DNA of 63,028 bases, the filler included, from Stramenopiles sp. TOSAG23-2 (lineage: Eukaryota): assembly GCA_900128395.1 (NCBI GenBank). It is 10 parts of 10 records of this genome, joined end to end, with 100 filler letters (N's around TTAATTAATTAA, not from the genome) between each part and the next. Parts side by side here need not be neighbours in the genome. Positions count along the whole stretch, not along the records: positions 48,002 to 54,730 come from LT650414.1; 9 more parts are not named here. One strand, written 5' to 3'. The notes under the pieces are model-generated. The model was not told the DNA's origin. It did no database searches and saw only the letters and a list, made by a program, of their open reading frames with translations. Both the position numbers and the translations under genes were made by a program. Each line of letters starts with the position of its first letter. Positions within the stretch are counted from its first letter, which is position 1. Below are positions 7,274 through 60,884 of the stretch, piece after piece.

Positions 7274-10200
7274 TTATGTCTGCAAAGGTTCATTTTGTGG
7301 CGCAAAGGCAACGCGATAGCGGGGCAAATCAGTGTAATAATGCGATCGTAGAACATCAAAATTTGCGTTCCCTTGATGGTTTAAGTGTAGATATATTCTA
7401 CCAGTCAATTGATCGCTGCGCGTGATACTGCGAGTCAACCATTCGCTCATCGATGCCCGGTGCAACTCAGCTGCAGCACGATGAAATACGAGCAACGATT
7501 TTTCTCGTGTATTTGGAACGATCAATGGCACCATATTTTCGCAAGGGTAATCTTTAGCACGGTCAATAATTACAATGCCATTTTCTTCATGCTTCCCTTC
7601 CATTATAGCAAACAGTAACCGTGGTCGTGACGGATGCTTTGTATCATAATATATAGTAAAAAAAGCTCTCAAGACGTTTGACACCATCGTAAGATGTGTA
7701 TTAAACTTTTCAGGGCGCAAGAGTAGTAATTCAAAGTACCTAGATCCTACATTTTTCGGATTTGATATGGTCTCGAGAAGTCTACTTTTTTCTGCTGGAT
7801 TTGCAGGCAAAGCGGCATTAGAGACTTCGGCATCGTGTTCCCAGTTTTTCATCGCCACATCGTCGCTTTGAAAGAAAAAATATTCTTTTCCTTCATACGG
7901 CATCATGCTTAAATAATCTTCCAGATGTAACAATACTTCTTCAAACGTTAATTTTCTCATTTCATTTCCTCTGATTTTTTCAAGCGTGTCCATTGCCAAA
8001 AAAAACTCACCAAGGTCACCACCCGGTGCACCCATGATACCATAACGCGCACGCCCATCAAAATCAGAAAAGAAATGTTTACTAATTACTCTGAATGGAA
8101 CCGTCCTAGGATTTAGTAATTTTCCCGATGAAGTTATTACTGGCAACAAGGCGTTTTGAAAATCACCCACACCACCTCCAATGCTACCAATAATAGACAG
8201 GATTTCATCTGCATTCGATATTGCCCTTTCGTAATCATCAGGAGATGCATTATTCATCCCTGGGCCATCTGCGCGGACGGTCATTGCAGTCACCGGGCAT
8301 ATGTAACGATTTGACAGATCAATTTTATTATTTAGATTAACTTTGTTTTTAATATCACTTGGAACATGACAAATTGTACAGCTTTCTCCACCATTTACTT
8401 TATGCTTACAATTTCTACAGCAACAAGGATGTGACATTACTACATTTTTTAACTTATTGTTTTGTGGAAAAATACGAACTTGCGGAGTTGAACTTTCACC
8501 TTGTACGCTACTGCTACTTCGTGCACTACTGCCATTATTTATCTTCCTCATGTCTTTGTTCATATCTTTTGTATCAGTGATATCTTTCTTCATGACTTTT
8601 GTATTGAAGATGTCTTTGTTCATATTCTTGGGTGTACTAGAATAATTGTTGGTGGATGGAACCAGCACGGTTTCCTCACGAAATCTCAAAGTTTTATGAG
8701 CTTTACCATTATATGCTTTTGTTACCTTTTTCTTTTCGTTCTTTAGTGTTGCCCCAACGCCTTTAACAATGGTGTTGCTGTTAATATCTTCTTTCAGTTT
8801 TTGAGCGTCCTTCAAGCTATTAATAATGTTTGATTGTTTTAGTGTTGCACCCTTCAGCTTTTTGAAAACTTTACCTATTGCCTTTCTTGAAGTTGCATTT
8901 TTAGCGAAATTTGAAATAGCTTTTTTTCCCTCAAAAGGCAAAGGCGCGGCCTTAGGTGTATCTGATTGCGCAATTGCAGTTATGTCGATTTTTTCTTTGT
9001 CAGATTTGCAAGGATCTGGGGATGGCAAAGTAAAAAACCCAGTTATTCCAGCCATTTTTTTGTCGTTCAATGATAACATTTCACCTGGATTCCTGTGATT
9101 CCTTTTACATAAGTTATATTCTTCAGAATCTTTGCTAATCACCTTGAATGACAACGTATGTTTTTCTGAGTCAGATGGCAAAAATGATTTACTAAATGCA
9201 CGAGCGTCACAAAAACGTACACATTCCGCATTACACGAATCGCCATCTTCATTACTACTTGCTAAAACAATGTGCCACGCGTGTTGCCAGTGTTTTTTTT
9301 CTTCGCTTTCCGTATACATGTACTCGTCTAAAGTATTGCTTGGTGAATTAACACACGGTCGTATGGACTCAGGTTTTTCCATATTCTCACAATGTGTTTC
9401 AGGGACTTGTCTCAAATCAACTTTCGATATGCATTCAACAATTCGCTTTTGTTCAGATGGACAACCTTGACAACGACCCCATTTAGCCTCTAAATCGGTG
9501 TGGATTGTACAATCTCGACATTGACTCAATGTGCGAGCGAAAGTTTCGTGCCTGGAACCTAAAATGGACGAAATGTTGTTAACATTGTAGCAACCGCGAT
9601 ATTGTCCATATGGGTTCCAAACGCATTCACTAGTCGTGCATTTCACACATGATCGGCATGTGTGGTATGGGCAAGATTGATTGCGAATTGGCTCAAACGA
9701 ACGAACTCTCCACTCGTATCCCTTACATATAATATTTTGAAAGTTGTGATGCAAGGAGGGTTTGCGGCTGCTACTCATACCCTTTAAATGGATATTTCGA
9801 ATTGTCGACATGCCAAAATGGCGATCGTTTGGAGAACGAGGGATCCATTCATTATCAGACGTCCAGGATCCAGGCAATAAATTGTGATTTATACTTTCTG
9901 ATAGAACTACCTCAAATCGCACCCCACCACCAGTTGTTTTGCTACCTTCATCATTTTTTTTGATGTTTTTTGACTTTCTTGAAAATACTGAAAGTATCTT
10001 TTTCCATGGTTTATTTCCCCTTAAGCTTAATCCAGCCTTTTTCGCGTCATATATTTGTGTTTTGCTTGCGAAACCATTCGCATTTTCTTCCAACAAATTC
10101 ATCTGCAAAAGTGCATTTCTATGTTTCCTATAAATTTCCGAAACATGTTTGAACGTTTCAATTGCCTGCTGCATTAGATTCCCGTAGCCTTCTAACAATG

Positions 10201-13200
10201 CTGACAGCTCTTTGGTAATTTCCTTGCTTCTATCTGCTTTATCACGTTCGTCAATTGAGGATGACTTGTACAAAACATAGGCAAGACGCCATAATTGGGC
10301 ATCGTTACGTAATTCTTTTCTAGCTTTCAAGAAAAAATCTACACCAGTTTCGGTAGACATTAATACATCCATCAAAATCGTTGCTTGTTTACCTTCAGCT
10401 TCCATTTGATTCAGCAATCCTTTAAAAAAATGATCGTTTGTCCGTTCTATTAATATTCTTCGTTGCTGGTCGTTACCTTGTTGATACATACTGATAAGTT
10501 TATCATACTTTTTTGGATAATCAGTTTTGACCCTGGCAACTTTGTTTAAAATTTTGTTTATAGGAGTTTCCGGAAAGTCCGTCAAACAGTCCTTGTGAAT
10601 GCAAGTGCTCCATTCGGAAACATCCCATTTTGCATCAGTATATTTGGCATGACATCCGTTATTTGCGATCCCACATAAATTGGATAAGTTCAATTGCGGA
10701 AATCCTTGATTGGTATTGTAGTGTCGAGAGTAAGTGAAATCATTTTCCTTTGTATCTAAGTGAATATGCTGATTTGTAACAATAGGAGGTTCACGAGCCA
10801 TCTCCATGAAACTTACGATGCCCAACTTTGGAAACTTAATCATCTTTTTGATTGAAGAGGATATGCTCGACACTTTTCCTGAAGTATTTGGATTCTCGCA
10901 CTGAGACGTGTCATTCAATGTAGTCCAAACTTGATAAGCATTCTCGATTTCACAAATGGGATCAGTCATTGCAATTTTCTTATCCGAGCATAACTCTTTG
11001 ATCCTCCACCGCTTGCAGGGTTTTTGTTTTACACAATTTCTTATGTACTGTGGCTTTTGGACTTCGGTACAATATGCATCCGGCACTATGATTTTTTCTT
11101 TCGAACTTTTTTTCACGTAACAATGGATTGCTCTTATTTGAACGCCTGGATCATCTTTTGGCCCACACGGCTTTTTACACATGTCATTAACATTAAAATC
11201 ATCAGAGAAAAGTATCTGTAGCTGGTTTCTCATTTCGCCCAAAGTTTTACCAAAATAAGCACCTGGAGTCTTTTTGACGACATTTTTAATTCTTTGTATC
11301 GGCAACTGTTTCTCTACTTTGTTGGTAATATCTGATATATATTGCCTAAGTTCTTCTTCCAGACTTTCTTTTCCATGAAATAATGCATGTAATTCAGACA
11401 TAGCCTCAAAAGTAGATTCTTCATGGTTTTCCTCAACAAATTTCGAAATGGTTATGACAAATCGACTTACAACATTATTGAAATCTGATAAAGAGCTTCC
11501 CGACATAGATTTTTTCATAATCTTAATTATTTCCATAAATCCACGATCGCTTACCGCTCGTAAAAAGTGCAAAGAACAGATATTATTCATATTTTCTAAC
11601 GAAAAAACCACACTCGTAAAACGTTTATTTTGATTCCCAAAAATGCCATTGATCTTTTGATAAAATATTGAATGTTGATTTGTTTTAATTTCATCGAAAT
11701 TCTCAAACCGTTGCGTAATTAATTTTACGTAGGCATCGAAACCAATGGGATTTTCTAAGAATAATATGTACGTCAGCGATACAAGAGATTGAATGTACTG
11801 TAAATTTTTTCTTGAATGACTGTTGCTTGATGAAAAGCAGACACTGCTTTCAGAGGAGGAATAGTAACCCGAGCTGACACTTGCGTTTGACATTCCTTCC
11901 TCTAAATCAGATTGGCAATTTTTGCTACTTTCAGACTTTTTCCAAACTTCTTTCACAGAATCAAATTGTTCACAAAAAATAGTTCCAATACAAGTATTGG
12001 CATCGCATCCAGCTGACCATCGATAGCAACCATTGGCTTGTTCCCCCTTTTCTCCACCTTTTGGGCATACAGTGGTGACCACAGGAATACTATCATTTTG
12101 TTCTTTACACAAATCGTAATTATAGATCGATATGCTTTCTTTTGTTTTATCATTTATTTGCAAACATTGTAAAGTGCGATGTTTATGTGAATGTTGCACA
12201 ATACCCGCTATAGGATCACAAATCGTGCAGGGACTCCAATCCGTAGTTGTCCATACATACCGTGAAGAATTGACTGGAAATATACACATTTTCGCTTCAC
12301 GTTGTGACGGCCGTCCGTTATCTTTTAATGTTCGATCATACTTGAATATATGCCAATCAGATGGATGCCCTGTGTTGGCAACATCATCTAAAATTCCCTC
12401 TGAAATATATTGTCCTGTGACTTGAACACTTTTATCACTTTGCATGCCAATGATATCAGCATTATCGTCAGCCAATTTGTCACAGACACTCTCATTTTGT
12501 GCAATCCATGGAAGATTTCCGGTAGATGTTTGGCATTCGGTTTCCACAGCAGTATTTTGTCCATCACAAATGGCTTTTGCTCGCCATCTTGAGCATTGGC
12601 AACTTTTTCGAAGTAAGGGCGCATCTTTAGCATTACCCCCACAGGCATTGTCACGATCATTCCCATCAATTTCTGTCTTAATATTTAAATTCTTATCAAC
12701 TCTAATACATGCGATTTTTCTTGTCTGAAAGGCATGTGGTGTGCAACATGGTGTCCATGGAGAAGTTTCCCAATAGTATTCGTAGTCCGGCTTTCCACAA
12801 ATTTTTTGGGAATCTCCATTTGGGAAATAAGATCTTGGCTCACAACTAGCAACATCAAAAATTTCTGTAGTTCCCCATTTTTCATCTTGCCCCCCTTCCT
12901 GTGGGTTGGGATATGCATGATGGGTGTATATATTTTTTGGTTTACATTTAGACACGAGGCAGGACTTTTGGTCACGAGCTTTGGTCCAATTATTTTTTAT
13001 CAATTCTTCCTCGCAAATATTTGCCAATAACACTTTTCCACGTTTACATACTTCATGAGTTTTCCATCTCACACACGGACTATTAATCTTGTCTTTGGTA
13101 CATTCCCCTTCAATTGCTGGTTTCACCATAGCAGGATCAGAAGATAAGCATTTCAAATCACTGACAATTTCTCGACTAGTTTTTGTTCCATCTTTACATT

Positions 13201-13653
13201 CGGCAACGCAAACAACTGTTCGTTTTTTCTTTCTACCTTCATTTGGAGGCCCACATTTAGTTTCATTACAGCCAGACCAGTCTGAGGTATTGAATTTGTA
13301 TTCACATGTAGATTTGCACTTATTAGTTTTTTGACACGAAAATGTTGGTTTGCATCCTGCTACGTTTCTAAATATTTGGTCACCCAGTTTATTTATTTTC
13401 TGTTCCACAGAATTACATTTAAAAACATTTGGGCTAAACTTAGTTGCAATGTGCATTTGATTTTTTAAAAGTCTCTCAGAAGCCTGTATTTCCAGAAACG
13501 TAGAAGATGGTGGTGAGTTTTTCTGAATTTCTTCATATGGACAATGTTCAGTACATTTCTTTTCATCGACTTTTATCCAATTGCTTTTGCTAGCTTGCTC
13601 CTCGCAAATTGCATACATTTTTGACTCATCATTTTCACAATAAGATCGGAAGG
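7274..13653 (-). CDS. Very large Cys-rich protein with ADAMTS-type TSP1 repeats, a PSI-like module and a C-terminal degenerate carbonic-anhydrase-like domain (5' truncated)
   Basis: ORF of more than 2114 aa, open to the contig end. Repeated WxTSxWSxC...RxVxC motifs. PSI-like CPYHTCRSCVKCTTSECVW. C-terminal FSDFDGRARYGIMGAPGGDLGEFFLAM. Confidence 0.8.
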
Positions 13654-22772: not shown

Positions 22773-23985
22773 ATGACAGCCATTGGAAAAAAGCGATCAT
22801 TACGAACGGCTAGTTTACGAAAAAAAAAAGCAACAACAACAACAAATAATAACAAAAAAATGGCAATGGTTGAGATTCTTTCGAAATATAATGAAGATGT
22901 GAAAAAAATATCACAAAATATAATAAAGAAAAAGAAAATTAATTTTGGATTTCGGTTCAATACATTCCATGCAAAAATATCTTTTTACATTGTACCAGTT
23001 TTATTAACACTTGCTGGGTTAATTTTTATAAAAAATCATGAAAGCCAATATATCTTTTATGAAACTTTAGCAATTTTAAGTTGTGTGTTATGTACAAGCG
23101 TATTATTATTATGTGGAATTTGGGAAATACTTTCATATTATTTGGCCTCGCCTGTTCCTGGGCATCGCTTGCAATTTAAAAAAAAAGATCCACCTATGTA
23201 TGTTAAAGAATCTATTGAAACGGTGGTATGCATTTATATTGTTGCATGTTTTATGACATGGCCAATAACACAAATACGCCTTGGTCAAACAACAGCATTC
23301 AAAGATACTCTAAAAGAATGCGTCCCAACATTGTTTGAAAGTTTTCCAATAATTGCATATCTTGTCAAAGTATTTTTAACTCTTTTGATAGCAGATACGC
23401 ATACGTTTTGGAAACATTACTTTTTACATAACCCAACATTTTATGTATTTCATAAGAGTCATCATAAGTTTCATAACCCTTCAACATTCGCATGTTTTGC
23501 GATACATCCTGTTGAAGCCGTATGGACGTTCTGGCCAATATTGTTGATATGTGTCCCTGAATTATTTTTTAAAGGTTTTATGGGACTTTATTTACCAGTT
23601 CATTTACCATTTCTTGGATTCTTCAGTTTGTTGAATCTATATTTACATTGTGGTTATAGTGTTCCATTTTTGGAATGGTTATTACCAAAGCTATGGATCA
23701 ATACGAGTAAGTAAAAATGTTTTTATGCGTGACAACAGAAATATCCAACTAACATCATCCTTTCATTTTAATTTCTTTTTAATTTGTACGTATATAAATG
23801 ATTATTTGTATCATATAGGTGAATGGCATAATAAACATCATGAATTAAGCATAACACATTTCGGTGAAATGTTAACAGTTTGGGATTATATTTGCGGAAC
23901 ACATACCGGTAATTGGAGCAAAGCTAAATATGAATCACAAATTAAAAAAGTTATCAAAGGTAAAGGTGGTATGGATGATAAATGA
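22773..23985 (+). CDS. Sterol desaturase / fatty acid hydroxylase superfamily protein, exons 22773-23706 and 23819-23985
   Basis: His boxes HYFLH, HKSHHKFH, YLHCG and HNKHH, plus WDYICGT. Intron 23707-23818 (GTAAGT...aactaac...tAG) restores the frame WINTSEWHNKHH. Confidence 0.88.
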
Positions 23986-48002: not shown

Positions 48003-51000
48003 ATTGTCCATCAACAACATGAGATTAGTAGACTGAACACATTGATACGCTCGTTAAAACAGGATTTGCCGCAGCTAGATGATAATAATAATAACCATCG
48101 CCGATTATTAATAAAAAATGAGCCAACATCAAAAAACGAAACTTGTGAAAAGGAAGAGAAATTATCACAAGAAACAATAATTAATGAAATAAAAATAACT
48201 TTATATAGTGCAATAATCATACTTTTTGGAATTGTTGCTGTAAGTATTTGTTTCGAGAGAACAGAAGAAGTTGCAAGAGAAAATACCAAAGATAACTTTA
48301 AGCAATTGCTACAAAATGTATTTTCTGAATTAACAGTACTTGGGTTCATAGGATTATTGATGTTTGTAATAACAAAATTTGGGAAAGAGTCATTAAATGA
48401 ATTAGCTGGAAATCCAAAAAATGGATTGTTTAAACATGATTGCTTTGAACATTGTGGTGAATTAATATGCCCTGAAAATCCTTTTATTGAATTAACTGAA
48501 ACGGTCCATATGATATTATTTGGCACTATGTTAATATTTTTAGGAAACACTGCAATTACATATTATTATGGTACGAAAATTTTTAATAAAGTCAGTCAAT
48601 GGGAACAATATTGTTTAGCACATACAGCAGAAAATGCGAAAAAATTAACAATTGACGCGAAGCGTTGCAAGGACGAAGCGTATGGTAATAGTATATTTGA
48701 TTTTATATGTCGTTGCAAATGTATAAATTGGAGAGAGAAAAATCTAGAATATACAGCTCAATTGCAACGCTATAAATATATGGCAATACGCAAGAGCTTC
48801 ATTGCATGTACAAATTCTAAATTGACAGCGAAAACGAAGCAGCATCAATTGACTGCTCATTTTAATTTTTCTTTATATTTACAATATGCATTAGGGGAAC
48901 AAATATCAGCAATGGTTGAAATATCCGCAGATAATTGGCTAGTATTGTTTTTAATACTATCCACTATACTTTTAATCAATGTAATTATTGCTGAAAGCGA
49001 ACATCGCCAAGTGTTAATGACTATACTTATTGTTGCATTAGGTTATATATCAGCATTATTGACGTATCTAGTAAAATTGAAATTGAAAGGCATTGAAGCC
49101 GCTGTGATGCCGTATTCCCTTGGAAGTATTGATAATAATTTCAAGACATCGCGTGTTAGGAATAATAATACTATGAACAGGCCATTATTGGGGAAAAAGC
49201 TTAGCCGAAGATTATCTATTCGCTTAACTGAAAGTGATTTTTTGTCTGAAATGAAATTAGATGAACATGGTAATCCAGTGCTAGCCCATTTAAATGCAAA
49301 TGATTTTGTATATGAACCAAATTACAAGATGAAGAACAATGGTATATTTGATGATGATGTCGAATATGAAACTACTTTTAAAATTTGCTGTAATTGTACA
49401 TTTTCAAAGGAACGGATTATTGCCTATTTAAGAGTAACACAAGTATTACATGCATTATACTTTGGTATTTTTTTTATCTTGATCCTTCCAAACATGCTAA
49501 GTTATTGGGAAAAACAACATAAAGGACATGAAAGTGATGAGGATGTTGATGATTTTAACAACATTTGGAATGTTGTATCATTTGCTATTTTATATATTAT
49601 TCCATTGATAGGTCAAACATACGGACTTGAAACTATTTTATTGCATATTATATATGTAGGTAACGTGGAATCGTTGACGGTGGAAAAGAACGTTGCACAG
49701 ACATTACGAGTTATGAAATCAAAACGAGCGTTGCAAGTTTTACATAATATTTCCTGTTTCATGTCCTACATGGATGATGTTGGAAAAGAATGTCAAAAAA
49801 CGTTTATGAAGATACCTTTGTTGGACGGGTTAGACGAAGAGCATGTAAAAGCCATCATGCTAAGCTGTGAACCGGCTGTTTTTAGAAAAGGTGCAAGTAT
49901 TATCAAACAAAATGAAAAGAATCCGAGAGGTTTATATATTATTTGTTCGGGTCAATGTGATGTATTTATTAATAAAATGAAAGTAAATAGTATAGGCATT
50001 GGAGAATACTTTGGTGAAGTAACTTTAATAACCGGAGGTGGTGCAACAGCTAGCGTGACAGCATCAGACTTGTGTATATGTATGTTATTAGATAGAGATA
50101 CCTTGATGAACTTATGCCCATCATTATTTAGAGAATTTGTTGAACGCAAGAAAACACTGAAACGAACAGATACACAGATTATATTGCGTCAAATGGCATA
50201 TCAGAAACATCAAAATATTGATAGTATGCGTGACATATTGACATTAAAACGTATGCCACATCCTGTTAATCCTGCTAGCCAAATTGCAAATGAGAAAAAT
50301 CTCATTTTACAAGGACCTCTTCAAAACATACAAGAAGAAGACATTGGTAGTAAAGTTCAAAAATCGACTCCAACTCCCCTTCGAAAAAAACGAAGGCGTA
50401 GTACGCACTTTGGTTGGTATGAGGAACCTGGTGGTATTCGTTACTTAAAAGGTTCTGTCATGGAAATCAAGAAAGAAAAGTCTATTGACAGTGCAATACA
50501 ATTTAATCGACGATTAGCGTTGCTAGATACTTTTAATTTGATTAATTCAAAGGATGATACAATAGAAGAAGATGAATTAGTATCCTTCTTGATCAACTTG
50601 TTCCCAAAAGAATCATCGTTGAGTGCATTTTACCGCTTACAAATTACATTGATGATAAAAACTATTGATTTAGACGGTGACGATACTATAGATAAGTATG
50701 AGTGGTTTGAGTAAGTTTTCAAATGTTTTCTATCTTTACTAACGTTAATCATCTATACCAATCCATATATGCCTAACACATCTGACTTATATTAATTAAA
50801 ATACGATAAAATCATTAGACTAATGGTGCCAATCGTGGAGAAAGAAGAAACTGAAAGTTTAGCTGAGGAAGTTTTTGAGAAGGTATTTAATATATTAGAT
50901 TATGATGGTGGTGGTGATATTACAGTTTCAGAATTTAGAGATGTATTGTTAAAAATCGGTTTGAACATTTCTTATGAAGAAGTAAGAGAAATCATAAATG

Positions 51001-51074
51001 AACACGATGATAGTGGTGATGGGTTGATGGATTTAGAAGAATTTGTTCATATGATGAAAAATCAAATTTGGTAG
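48003..51074 (+). CDS. MLO-family multi-TM protein fused to a cNMP-binding-like domain and EF-hands, exons 48003-50710 and 50819-51074 (5' truncated)
   Basis: MLO motifs SICFE, SELTVLGFIGLL, VHMILF, QWE, YMAIRKSFI and FNFSLYL...VEISADNW. CNB-like LYIICSGQCDV...GEYFGEVTL. EF loops DLDGDDTIDKYEW, DYDGGGDITVSEF and DDSGDGLMDLEEF. Intron 50711-50818 (GA|GTAAGT...tAG). Confidence 0.8.
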
Positions 51075-51554
51075 AGTGTGTCAAGTATTTGTACGATTGA
51101 TGTGGTTGTGTCAAATATTTTTTTAAATATTAAAACAATCAAATATTTGATAGGCATATTACTAAGTATTAATAGTATAGTAGTATATACAGATTTCATA
51201 TTTCAACTGCTATACTCATACAATACAGTATTTTGCACTTTTCACAACTATGGAAAAGCAAAAAGACCTCCTGCACTCTCCTCGATAAATAATTGACCAA
51301 CATTACTTAGTATAATAAAACATCAACAATATATAAATACCAGGTAAGTACTTACCAGGTACGTCTATACTATTACATATTTGAAAGTAGTCTCGTCTAT
51401 ATATACATTCCTACAGATCAAACTGCAATATAATACAATTTTCTAAAGACATTACCAAAAGTACTTTATCCATACATAAAGTATAAAGTAAAAACCAAAA
51501 CCTAATTTATATTTTTTCATTATCTCTAAATAAAGTTATAACACAAACTCGACA

Positions 51555-52778
51555 ATGGCATCATTAACATTACAACAAAAGAAATTAATTACAGAATTAA
51601 AAAAGCATGAAAAAACTCATGTACAAAATGAGATTGATAAATGGTTTCCAATAGCAGAACATAGAACAGATGATTATCATGAGTTTAAAAAATGTTATTT
51701 ACAAACTGTAGAGACGATAAATTTGCAGGAAAATGCAAAAAAATCCAATAAATCAAAGTCAGGAAAGGTATCATCACTACTAGAAGAATCCAATGAAAAT
51801 ATGTTACGCGCTGAATTCATAGATTCACTTGAGTTTGTTAAAAAAGATGCAAAATTGTTTTCAATAGTAAAATTTAAACCTCCACATGGTAGAAGCTCAA
51901 AAAGTCTAGACCAGATGAATGATGAAGATAAATATTGGTATAACGTTAAAGAATCAAACAATAACAAGAAGAAAAAGGAGCAGAAGAAGAACAAGAAAGA
52001 ATACAATCCATATGATCCATTTACTGCTTTTATTTATGAAACATGTAGTTTGAAAGAAAAAGCTATTGATAGGATTGGACACCCAATAGGAAATTTATAT
52101 GAATATATGGTTGCAAAACATATTAAAAAAAGTACTCATATCAAATGTATTAATTGCGAAGCCACGAATCGTAGTATTATATGGAATGGTGGTTCGAGTA
52201 CATCTTGGCAAGATTTAATATGTACGGATTGTGGTGCTTTTTATGAAATAAAAGCAAAGAAAACATGGTATGAAAATTTTATGCCTCGTGAGAAAGCAAT
52301 AAATAGGTGTTTAGCGCGGGATGTTAATGGTGGAAGCTACTCTCGATTTAAAGAACAAAAAGGGGAAAAAATCAACCATTTCCTTGTAATAGTTGACCGA
52401 GGAAAGTTAACACAGAACAAGCATCAAGTATATTGTTATAAAATTTTAGATGTTTTTCCGCGTTTAAATGAAAAAACTTTTGCAAAATGGAAAAGAGATG
52501 GAAAAAAAGAAGATTATCAAATGACATTAAAGTCCAACATAAAAGTTGATTTAGATAGTGAGCAAAAATGGTTTAAATTGCCAAAATCAGAGTATACCGA
52601 TCCAGAAAAAAAATTGGACGAAATAAAAGCAACATTTTTACAGGAATGGTTAAATGCTAAATTTGATGCAGAGAACAACAACAACAACAACAACAACGAA
52701 GCAAGTGATACAGAAGTCCTTGGGAAGAAGATTGAGAATTTAAACGTAAAAGATAGTTGGGAAGAAGATTGTGATTAA
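51555..52778 (+). CDS. Putative DpnI/Dam-replacing-like zinc-finger PD-(D/E)XK nuclease
   Basis: GNLYEYMV...CINC...WQDLICTDCGAFYEIKAKK...NGGSY...NHFLVIV has the same motif order as the DpnI catalytic domain. Confidence 0.65.
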   Translation: MASLTLQQKKLITELKKHEKTHVQNEIDKWFPIAEHRTDDYHEFKKCYLQTVETINLQENAKKSNKSKSGKVSSLLEESNENMLRAEFIDSLEFVKKDAKLFSIVKFKPPHGRSSKSLDQMNDEDKYWYNVKESNNNKKKKEQKKNKKEYNPYDPFTAFIYETCSLKEKAIDRIGHPIGNLYEYMVAKHIKKSTHIKCINCEATNRSIIWNGGSSTSWQDLICTDCGAFYEIKAKKTWYENFMPREKAINRCLARDVNGGSYSRFKEQKGEKINHFLVIVDRGKLTQNKHQVYCYKILDVFPRLNEKTFAKWKRDGKKEDYQMTLKSNIKVDLDSEQKWFKLPKSEYTDPEKKLDEIKATFLQEWLNAKFDAENNNNNNNNEASDTEVLGKKIENLNVKDSWEEDCD

Positions 52779-52925
52779 GAAAAATAAAACTCTCTGATAT
52801 ATAATACTGTAGCTGTAGCTATGATATCATATACCTCTGACATTTAAAGAAAAAATAAAATATACCTAATATTAGAAATATTATATTAAAAGTCTTTTTT
52901 TATTTAAAAAATATTTACAAAAATT

Positions 52926-59801: not shown

Positions 59802-60884
59802 ATGGCCGTTGCATATCACCATATTGACGAATACGAAGATGTCATGCCAACACCAACGAATGATGTTGAAATATTTCGAAATACTAAATTTTCACAACAA
59901 TGGGATAAGAAAATACATGAAACAATAACACAAACGGAAACAGATCATAGTAAAATAATCAATGATAAAGCATTGACAAAGGAGGAAAAGAAACCAATTG
60001 TATTGCAATATCCAGCATTTAATATGCAAGGTAAACACAATAAATCTAGCACGGAAAATCATAAAGAGAATGAGAAAAAAAATGTCAAAACGGAAGAGAA
60101 AGGGAAGAATAGTAATAGTAATAATAATAATGTAACAATGTCAACTAATAATAATAATAAAAAAGAAATTGAAGAGTGGAAACATGCCTCTCAATTTTTA
60201 AATAAACGTATTAATAATACGACGTTGAAAATAAATGAAAAAAGACGTTTTCTTGTTGGTAGTGCAATGGCGGATGAATACATTCGTCTATGCGATTTAG
60301 TCAAAACAAATGGTGGTAGTAATTTATATCGTCTACGTGGGGATAATCGACCATTACCAACTGAACATTTAACATATGGGGAAGCACAATTAGATAGTTT
60401 TGTGAAAGTATTGCAACGTTTAGATTTACATGCTGGTCAACGATTTTTAGATTTAGGTAGTGGTGCAGGGACATTAGTCATCTTAGCAAGTTTATTTGGT
60501 TGTGAAAGTGTTGGTGTTGAAATCGTACAACATTTATATGAAACGTCTATGATTTTATTAGATCGATGGGAAGAAGGTAAAACTCATAATCCTCCATTAC
60601 CTTTACATTATAATGATTCAAGTAATAACTCACGTTGTCAATTTTTATTGCAAGATATGTTTGAAATTCCATGGAAGGATTATGATTTAATATATGCCTG
60701 TAGTACATGTTATGGTGCACCAATGTGCAAACGTATTGCAATCAAAGCATCTGAGGAGATGGAACGTGGTTTGATATTGTCCGTAAGCAAGCCGTTGTAC
60801 AATTTAAAAGTCATCGATACGATTGAATGTTTGTTTTCATGGGGGAAAGATAAAATTTTTGTTCATGTACCCAGTTCAAATTAG
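59802..60884 (+). CDS. DOT1-like class I SAM-dependent methyltransferase
   Basis: LTYGEAQLDSF, FLDLGSGAG, GVEI and DLIYACSTCY match the DOT1 domain motif order. Confidence 0.75.
   Translation: MAVAYHHIDEYEDVMPTPTNDVEIFRNTKFSQQWDKKIHETITQTETDHSKIINDKALTKEEKKPIVLQYPAFNMQGKHNKSSTENHKENEKKNVKTEEKGKNSNSNNNNVTMSTNNNNKKEIEEWKHASQFLNKRINNTTLKINEKRRFLVGSAMADEYIRLCDLVKTNGGSNLYRLRGDNRPLPTEHLTYGEAQLDSFVKVLQRLDLHAGQRFLDLGSGAGTLVILASLFGCESVGVEIVQHLYETSMILLDRWEEGKTHNPPLPLHYNDSSNNSRCQFLLQDMFEIPWKDYDLIYACSTCYGAPMCKRIAIKASEEMERGLILSVSKPLYNLKVIDTIECLFSWGKDKIFVHVPSSN

Follow-up and report, generated by a model that had tools for sequence, protein, structure and literature searches.

The locus described here raises the question of whether a eukaryote carries a nuclease of the DpnI type and, if so, whether that nuclease is active and which nucleic acid it would cut. 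It is an open reading frame (ORF) at positions 51555-52778 of the window, i.e., the whole stretch of 63,028 nucleotides that was analyzed, which joins ten parts of ten records of the genome of Stramenopiles sp. TOSAG23-2 (GCA_900128395.1) and holds the ORF in its part from LT650414.1. A preliminary description, made from the sequence alone, regarded the ORF as an intronless gene for a DpnI-like nuclease of the Dam-replacing family. To our knowledge, restriction enzymes that depend on modification are regarded as belonging to prokaryotes, and the two enzymes with which the eukaryotic query was compared, i.e., R.DpnI (a Type IIM enzyme of Streptococcus pneumoniae; PDB 4ESJ/4KYW) and Drg (the Dam-replacing protein of Neisseria; PF06044), are, by contrast, bacterial. 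Overall, our analyses suggest that the gene likely encodes an active, metal-dependent endonuclease whose core belongs to the lineage of the DpnI catalytic domain, in an uncharacterized eukaryotic family.

The gene and its predicted catalytic core

All motifs on which the preliminary description was built were found in the translation, i.e., GNLYEYMV (residues 179-186), CINC (198-201), D220-L-I-CTDC (CTDC at 223-226), GAFYEIKAK (YEIKAK at 230-235), NGGSY (258-262), NHFLVIV (274-280) and SNIKVDL (inside 325-333); two of its spacer counts were corrected, with 11 residues (not 9) from V186 to C198 and 18 (not 16) from C201 to D220. Translated in all six frames, the window contained the composite pattern E..CxxC..DxxCxxC..ExK a single time, and none of 200 mononucleotide shuffles contained it. 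The coding sequence and the elements of its putative active site are as follows.

51555-52778, + strand: complete coding sequence, 407 residues in a single exon, stop codon included (ATG-to-stop ORF)
52077-52583, + strand: predicted DpnI-like PD-(D/E)XK nuclease domain, residues 175-343 (VIA-align and hhalign to viral and bacterial DpnI families)
52101-52103, + strand: E183, equivalent of DpnI E25, within helix 178-192
52146-52157, + strand: first CxxC (C198/C201), predicted zinc ligands, equivalent of the first DpnI CxxC
52212-52214, + strand: D220, equivalent of DpnI D53, just before strand 221-223
52221-52232, + strand: second CxxC (C223/C226), in the hairpin from Asp to ExK as in DpnI
52245-52253, + strand: ExK motif E231-I-K233, equivalent of DpnI E64-L-K66, in strand 229-235

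The active site of DpnI, as given in PMC3424567, consists of E25, D53, E64 and K66, and its zinc ligands are four cysteines, one pair located after E25 and before D53 and the other in the hairpin that leads from D53 to ExK. Our alignments map these four residues onto E183, D220, E231 and K233 and the four cysteines onto C198/C201 and C223/C226; the Cys4 layout matches the positions of the DpnI zinc site exactly, and zinc binding is predicted. Query and DpnI share the order of helix with Glu, CxxC, Asp, CxxC hairpin and ExK within a PD-(D/E)XK core; the GGS(Y/F) of the query matches the DGAY of DpnI, and a hydrophobic fourth strand follows in both. The spacing from the first CxxC to the Asp, on the other hand, is 18 residues in the query as compared to 15 in DpnI.

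When 1.84 billion cluster representatives were scanned exhaustively with HMMER, 152 relatives scored E <= 1e-3 (34 at E <= 1e-10), with a conserved stretch corresponding to query residues ~150-350. Conservation was counted over these 152 members, using as denominator the members with a residue at the column in question. The catalytic residues are conserved in 140/145 (E183), 147/150 (D220), 143/146 (E231) and 145/146 (K233) members and the zinc cysteines in 144/146 (C198), 147/147 (C201), 150/150 (C223) and 149/150 (C226), such that each is kept in at least 96% of the family. The proposal that the catalytic E, D and ExK residues and all four zinc cysteines are intact is thus borne out for the query and extends to its family. 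Residues specific to the family are also frequent, i.e., W210 (134/149), G212 (147/150), W218 (142/150) and W339 (118/126), and in a 70-member alignment the columns of C201, G212, D220, C223, C226 and K233 are invariant.

AlphaFold2 was run with the family alignment on the whole protein and on the core (residues 152-352). The whole-protein model had a mean predicted local distance difference test score (pLDDT) of 80.8 and a predicted template modeling score of 0.82; the core had a pLDDT of 88.7. As judged from the secondary structure of the model (assigned with DSSP) and from the alignments, E183 lies in helix 178-192, D220 before strand 221-223 and E231 and K233 in strand 229-235, with NHFLVIV forming the next core strand; in the model this placement is the canonical PD-(D/E)XK layout.

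Foldseek searches against the PDB ranked DpnI first for both models. For the core, the match to 4kyw_A had E 2.2e-3, probability 1.00 and a template modeling score of 0.42, and the next family reached a probability of <=0.54. VIA-align superposed model residues 175-341 on DpnI residues 13-158 (Z 7.9, root mean square deviation 3.7 A, 138 residues aligned). In a VIA-align scan of 48,161 chains that was independent of Foldseek, the best 50 rows were mostly named PD-(D/E)XK-type nucleases, with R.SwaI (Z 7.0) and DpnI (Z 6.9) tied at the top. The same core fold is present in R.SwaI, Hjc/RecU resolvases, the SPARDA nuclease domain, R.PvuII, R.ThaI and the influenza PA endonuclease (Z 4.4-7.0); no sequence or profile match between the query and any of these turned up in Pfam or PDB sequence searches. 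The PD-(D/E)XK fold that had been expected for this protein is thus found in the models, with DpnI as the top hit of Foldseek and the top or tied-top hit of VIA-align. We regard the assignment to the fold class, as seen in the models, as secure; how close the protein is to DpnI in particular is judged from Foldseek together with the sequence profiles.

Relatives in eukaryotes, giant viruses and bacteria

Among 19 family clusters that were looked up, one holds MMETSP, EukProt and UniRef entries of the diatom Ditylum brightwellii (named "Uncharacterized protein") and one further cluster contains a EukProt entry; the other 17 consist of metagenome or metatranscriptome proteins. Close relatives of the query occur in independent data sets, with identities of 95% (P0002) and 57% (P0003). 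The query is one member of a large uncharacterized family of (mostly marine) eukaryotes. Among 109 family proteins scanned with Pfam, one (P0008) carries several CCCH zinc fingers after the nuclease, one (P0052) has its nuclease flanked by a KH domain on the N-terminal side and an IQ motif on the C-terminal side, and P0018 and P0094 also carry IQ motifs.

The sequence link from this family to DpnI runs through giant viruses. An IMG/VR scan revealed ORFs of 190-202 residues in giant viruses that are related to the query and exceed the PF06044 cut-off (31 and 36.4 bits). Viral DpnI-like proteins of 190-205 residues from IMG/VR loci L001-L004 and L006-L027 define what we here call the viral clade. 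A profile of 21 viral proteins matched the sequence of the DpnI structure 4esj (E 1.6e-7) in an alignment that spans the Glu, both CxxC, the Asp, FELKSK, DGAY and NFFFL. Comparisons with hhalign linked the eukaryotic family to the viral clade (94.6%, E 6.8e-8, 84 columns), to a Drg-type protein of Neisseria (89.5%, E 2e-6, 70 columns; this protein scores 260 bits to PF06044 and 114 bits to DpnI_C) and to seven bacterial DpnI-family proteins (90.6%, E 1.3e-6, 76 columns), which were drawn from 13 matches in 401 genomes searched; the viral and bacterial sets matched each other over 102 columns (97.6%, E 3e-12). In searches of small databases, the viral hidden Markov model matched 129 of the 152 family members at E <= 10 (query, 28.6 bits), and the family model matched 37 of 39 viral proteins and the Neisseria protein. 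This chain of profiles from family to viruses to bacteria, together with the 4esj match, supports the claim that the gene has a DpnI-like catalytic domain. Giant-virus proteins are both the closest profile match of the family and its closest predicted structures: Foldseek matches in BFVD (A0A5J6VJS7, named "Megaviridae environmental sample", and E5ESH8; E 2.4e-6 and 1.4e-5) were closer than DpnI itself.

A phylogeny with bacterial, viral and protist-type homologues, as called for in the preliminary description, was obtained by quick maximum likelihood from 170 rows and 134 columns of the core, after 42 of the 152 members had been dropped for an incomplete core. The 110 family rows fell on one side of a branch with a Shimodaira-Hasegawa-like approximate likelihood ratio of 99 and the 53 viral and 7 bacterial rows on the other, and the query was not inside the viral clade in this tree. 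These sequence comparisons point to a eukaryotic family that is sister-like to the giant-virus clade of short DpnI-type proteins. Scans of genome contigs gave no relative for the viral alignment and, for the Neisseria protein, only close relatives within Neisseria; a metagenome scan with a single protein found no relative and a tblastn search of phages with a viral protein returned nothing.

Membership in the Dam-replacing family in the sense of Pfam did not hold. The query has no match there, PF06044 gave sub-threshold matches in 16 of the 70 aligned members and matches at E <= 0.01 in 29 of the 109 scanned, and none of the latter reached the gathering cut-off of 26.7 bits (best, 25.4 bits). 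The preliminary description had also noted the lack of a winged helix; the DpnI_C domain (PF17726) was indeed not found by Pfam at E <= 10, in a search that gave 114 bits in the Neisseria protein. The model ends, beyond residue 343, in a single long helix and a tail predicted to be disordered. As judged by length or architecture, the winged helix is absent from the viral and eukaryotic clades alike. Since the winged helix was not found, the methyl-binding loop is unrecognizable (see below) and the Pfam threshold was not reached, sequence and model place the family within the DpnI lineage, as a new branch in eukaryotes, rather than as DpnI proper. Separately, the order of elements in residues 80-152 (51792-52010; helix 80-97, strand 102-107, helices 115-119 and 123-127, strand 128-130, Lys-rich loop, strand 150-152) resembles a winged-helix topology N-terminal to the nuclease, with a pLDDT of only 51-70.

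Several results weigh against the view that this is an active nuclease of the DpnI lineage in a eukaryotic family. On its own, the query has no match at E <= 10 in Pfam, NCBIfam or PADLOC, and the full-length family profile gave 0 matches at E <= 10 against PDB sequences. Homology was aligned over only about 76-84 columns and ends with the fourth strand. The scores from structure comparison are middling (Z < 8, which is so by VIA-align's own scale, and Foldseek E > 1e-3), and in the wide scan DpnI is only tied with other PD-(D/E)XK enzymes. The label "eukaryotic" depends on this window and on 2 of the 19 clusters, the others being without taxonomy, and the RNA contigs over the gene (see below) are of low depth and come from metatranscriptomes, which can contain DNA. 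For every family member, moreover, the probable catalytic activity is read from sequence and model. Apart from the searches already named, PHROGs and PDB sequences yielded nothing of substance for the query; LIM-domain and uL13 rows in the PDB sequence search were set aside as cysteine or chance matches.

The most skeptical reading of these facts is that catalysis has been lost and that the protein is only a zinc-stabilized binding module, or that the gene arrived by recent transfer or contamination and does nothing in this host. The predicted status of the activity and the lack of a direct match for the query in Pfam, PDB sequences, NCBIfam and PADLOC are in keeping with it, as is the ratio of nonsynonymous to synonymous variation (crude pN/pS 0.41) in RNA contigs, which derives from 13 nonsynonymous and 7 synonymous variants, i.e., 20 sites, too few to weigh; 3 of the 20 sites fall in the nuclease core. 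However, conservation of the four catalytic residues at the level reported above would be unexpected for a pure binding module, and the setting of the gene argues against a foreign origin. The window is eukaryotic nuclear DNA carrying long uninterrupted ORFs; its GC content is 0.29-0.31 around the gene as compared to 0.28-0.39 across the window, and its cellular genes include those for COPI alpha, a gamma-tubulin complex component, a prenyltransferase, mevalonate-diphosphate decarboxylase and an Mlo/cyclic-nucleotide-binding protein. We therefore rejected a contaminant or bacterial insert, because composition and flanking genes are those of a eukaryotic host, and a giant-virus origin of the whole window, because it holds COPI, gamma-tubulin complex and other cellular genes. 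The 95%- and 57%-identical relatives, from independent data sets, likewise speak against a contaminant, as do RNA contigs that stop near the borders of the ORF. We consider loss of catalysis, or a functionless newcomer, very improbable. The view that the gene looks domesticated rather than contaminant accordingly stands in its second half, given host-like composition and eukaryotic neighbors; a one-off domesticated gene does not fit membership in a large family.

RNA contigs from four libraries of three studies cover parts of 51564-52874, and two of these four libraries were polyA or oligo-dT selected. No contig lies in the 5' intergenic region (51300-51563), and no contig over the gene contains a joint. 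These observations fit an unspliced transcript of about the size of the ORF; gaps between contigs inside the ORF were given no weight. Promoter and terminator patterns around the gene did not exceed shuffled sequences, the patterns being bacterial consensus sequences and the host a eukaryote.

Candidate substrates and mechanism

For an active nuclease of the DpnI lineage, the mechanism can be sketched by analogy. As in DpnI, E183, D220 and E231 would hold Mg2+ and K233 would complete the active site. The analyses show homology, fold and conservation of the catalytic and zinc residues, and Mg2+-dependent phosphodiester cleavage is the predicted reaction. A zinc ion held by C198/C201/C223/C226, woven between the catalytic residues, would stabilize the hairpin that carries them. 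What the enzyme reads and where it docks may depend on parts other than the elements of the putative active site; the parts annotated besides these are as follows.

51555-51845, + strand: N-terminal helical region, residues 1-97 (AlphaFold model, pLDDT blocks 70-96)
51945-52001, + strand: Lys/Asn-rich low-complexity loop, residues 131-149 (pLDDT 51-57; shorter in the 57%-identical P0003)
52182-52208, + strand: family-specific loop W210-N-G-G...S-W218, between the first CxxC and the putative catalytic Asp
52419-52583, + strand: long beta-hairpin, residues 289-343; a loop and helix 306-315 lie between its strands (DSSP of the model)
52674-52697, + strand: poly-Asn tract, residues 374-381 (three Asn in the 95%-identical P0002)
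52752-52775, + strand: C-terminal acidic-Trp motif DSWEEDCD (family consensus ~DDWEDL), predicted to be disordered (pLDDT <50)

The W210/G212/W218 loop, an N-terminal region of 170 residues, a longer beta-hairpin insert and the acidic-Trp tail are among the features that distinguish the query from DpnI. In the model, residues 1-97 form a helical hairpin (6-30 and 39-61) followed by helix 80-97; this region holds motifs seen in the family alignment around "L.EWG" (IDKWF in the query) and around D90. The hairpin of residues 289-343 contains P302, F309 and W339, which are conserved in the family. The poly-Asn tract that had been reported earlier is a run of eight Asn. The N-terminal region and the acidic-Trp motif are common to many family members: of the 84 members whose tail is complete, 43 have the motif, which in 24 cases matches W-x-x-[LIVMF]. 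It is often followed by SDSD, and we presume a resemblance to short docking motifs such as LIR (LC3-interacting region) or W-acidic types. The W210/G212/W218 loop and the long hairpin might conceivably read the substrate, and partners would probably dock through the N-terminal helices and the disordered tail, a suggestion that we make tentatively. Our best guess for the role is a surveillance nuclease in conflicts between the host and foreign or viral nucleic acid, which could be DNA or RNA, modified or not.

One specific version of this role is a true modification-dependent enzyme that cuts double-stranded DNA at N6-methylated adenine (6mA), in GATC or ApT, and serves against methylated DNA of giant viruses or prey or reads the 6mA of its own genome. 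The only characterized relatives, i.e., DpnI and Neisseria Drg, require Gm6ATC (for Drg, see PMC4269198), and, according to the structural account in PMC4117772, the catalytic domain of DpnI is methyl-specific by itself. The same account places the methyl-adenine cleft of DpnI at L129, R135, W138 and G140 and its GATC contacts at N48, R126 and R135, and has both within a long loop that connects a pair of antiparallel strands. In the model of the query, strands 289-303 and 326-343 of the hairpin, which carries the conserved P302, F309 and W339, are likewise joined by a loop; it sits topologically where the DpnI loop does and is unrelated to it in sequence. W210 and W218, in the WNGG...SW loop that occupies the position of the base-contacting N48 loop, could contact bases or methyl groups.

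Against this stands the fact that no alignment reaches the L129/R135/W138/G140 cleft: local hhalign alignments stop at about DpnI residue 100, and a forced global alignment that puts W339 on DpnI W138 does so with a confidence near zero. As the alignments do not extend to the methyl-binding loop, a dependence on Gm6ATC or 6mA is purely inferred. The lack of a DpnI_C winged helix by Pfam and the low identity to DpnI (14-17% in structural alignments) also argue against it, and specificity shifts fast among PD-(D/E)XK enzymes. As read from the sequence, the N-terminus has no stretch resembling the signal peptide that would suit a digestive role. Consistent with the earlier remark that no partner methylase is evident nearby, an N6-adenine methyltransferase was not found among the 34 window ORFs scanned, the sole methyltransferase among them being a DOT1-like protein methyltransferase (59802-60884); this absence says little because linkage would not be expected in a eukaryote. 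Overall, a methyl-adenine-dependent DNA nuclease is a possible, if unlikely, reading of the gene.

The relatives in giant viruses bring RNA into view. Viral proteins are half as long as the query, lie above the Pfam DpnI cut-off, unlike the query, and lack the WNGG..SW loop. In 20 of the 22 viral loci L006-L027, the DpnI-like gene is located directly upstream of, and on the same strand as, a gene for SUI1/eIF1, with a gap of 31-488 nucleotides (for example L020:3989-6234; SUI1 is missing at L017 and L024, and L020 has near-copies in L021 and L022). Within 4 kb downstream, 13 of the 22 loci contain a PCIF1-like gene (PF12237, NPPY motif), and the best-conserved upstream neighbor is present in only 10 of 20 distinct loci. 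PCIF1 is the writer of the cap modification N6,2'-O-dimethyladenosine (m6Am). The SUI1 and PCIF1-like neighbors may be a sign that the viral nuclease has to do with mRNA or translation.

The nuclease of the query could accordingly be imagined to act on RNA, e.g. mRNA, instead of DNA, and perhaps to sense N6-methyladenosine (m6A) near the cap or at internal sites. Besides the viral gene neighbors, weak hints in this direction come from the CCCH fingers of P0008 and the KH domain of P0052, and from structural neighbors that cut RNA, i.e., the influenza PA endonuclease (Z 4.4-4.9 over model residues 77-359) and tRNA-splicing endonucleases. However, the fusions concern only 2 of 109 proteins, the adjacency in viruses is not an operon and pertains to the viral clade rather than to the eukaryotic one, and the closest relatives in structure and sequence are DNA enzymes. 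YTH-domain rows in the Foldseek lists (probability <=0.21) were treated as noise and carry no weight. We consider an RNA nuclease unlikely.

A bolder idea joins these strands: a family-wide protist nuclease derived from DpnI, shared with and fought over by giant viruses, would sense N6-methylation of adenine, whether of DNA or of mRNA (m6A or cap m6Am), and the viral copies would pair with the PCIF1-like methyltransferase and eIF1 to tell viral from host messages. We regard this idea as quite improbable.

Other genes of the window and significance of the family

Upstream of the nuclease gene, an ORF at 48042-50714 (+ strand) combines a weak Mlo-family match with a cyclic-nucleotide-binding domain, and an ORF with a pair of EF-hands (50823-51074, + strand) begins about 108 nucleotides after it; the two (48042-51074) may be one gene with a short intron and an unusual combination of domains. 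Elsewhere in the window, an uninterrupted ORF of 2114 residues (7274-13618, - strand) had no Pfam match at E <= 0.001, and a fatty-acid hydroxylase domain is divided between overlapping ORFs in different frames (22773-23714 and 23650-23985, + strand), which suggests a short intron or a frameshift within 22773-23985.

In full-text searches on DpnI-like, PF06044 and Dam-replacing proteins in eukaryotes and giant viruses, a eukaryotic DpnI-type family was not described. The 2012 census of PD-(D/E)XK proteins presents PF06044, in a table, as bacterial with a patchy distribution (PMC3424549), and the passages on DpnI in a 2016 BioEssays review of eukaryotic adenine methylation concern only methyltransferases of the DpnII system (PMC4738411).

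A conserved protist family with an apparently intact DpnI-type active site and a viral sister clade provides candidates for 6mA- or m6A-directed cleavage in eukaryotes. The family also offers a handle on conflicts between protists and giant viruses, and it is perhaps a source of enzymes for the mapping of adenine methylation. If a protist nuclease of this family did prove to sense N6-methylation, it would represent a eukaryotic system of modification-dependent nucleic-acid immunity.

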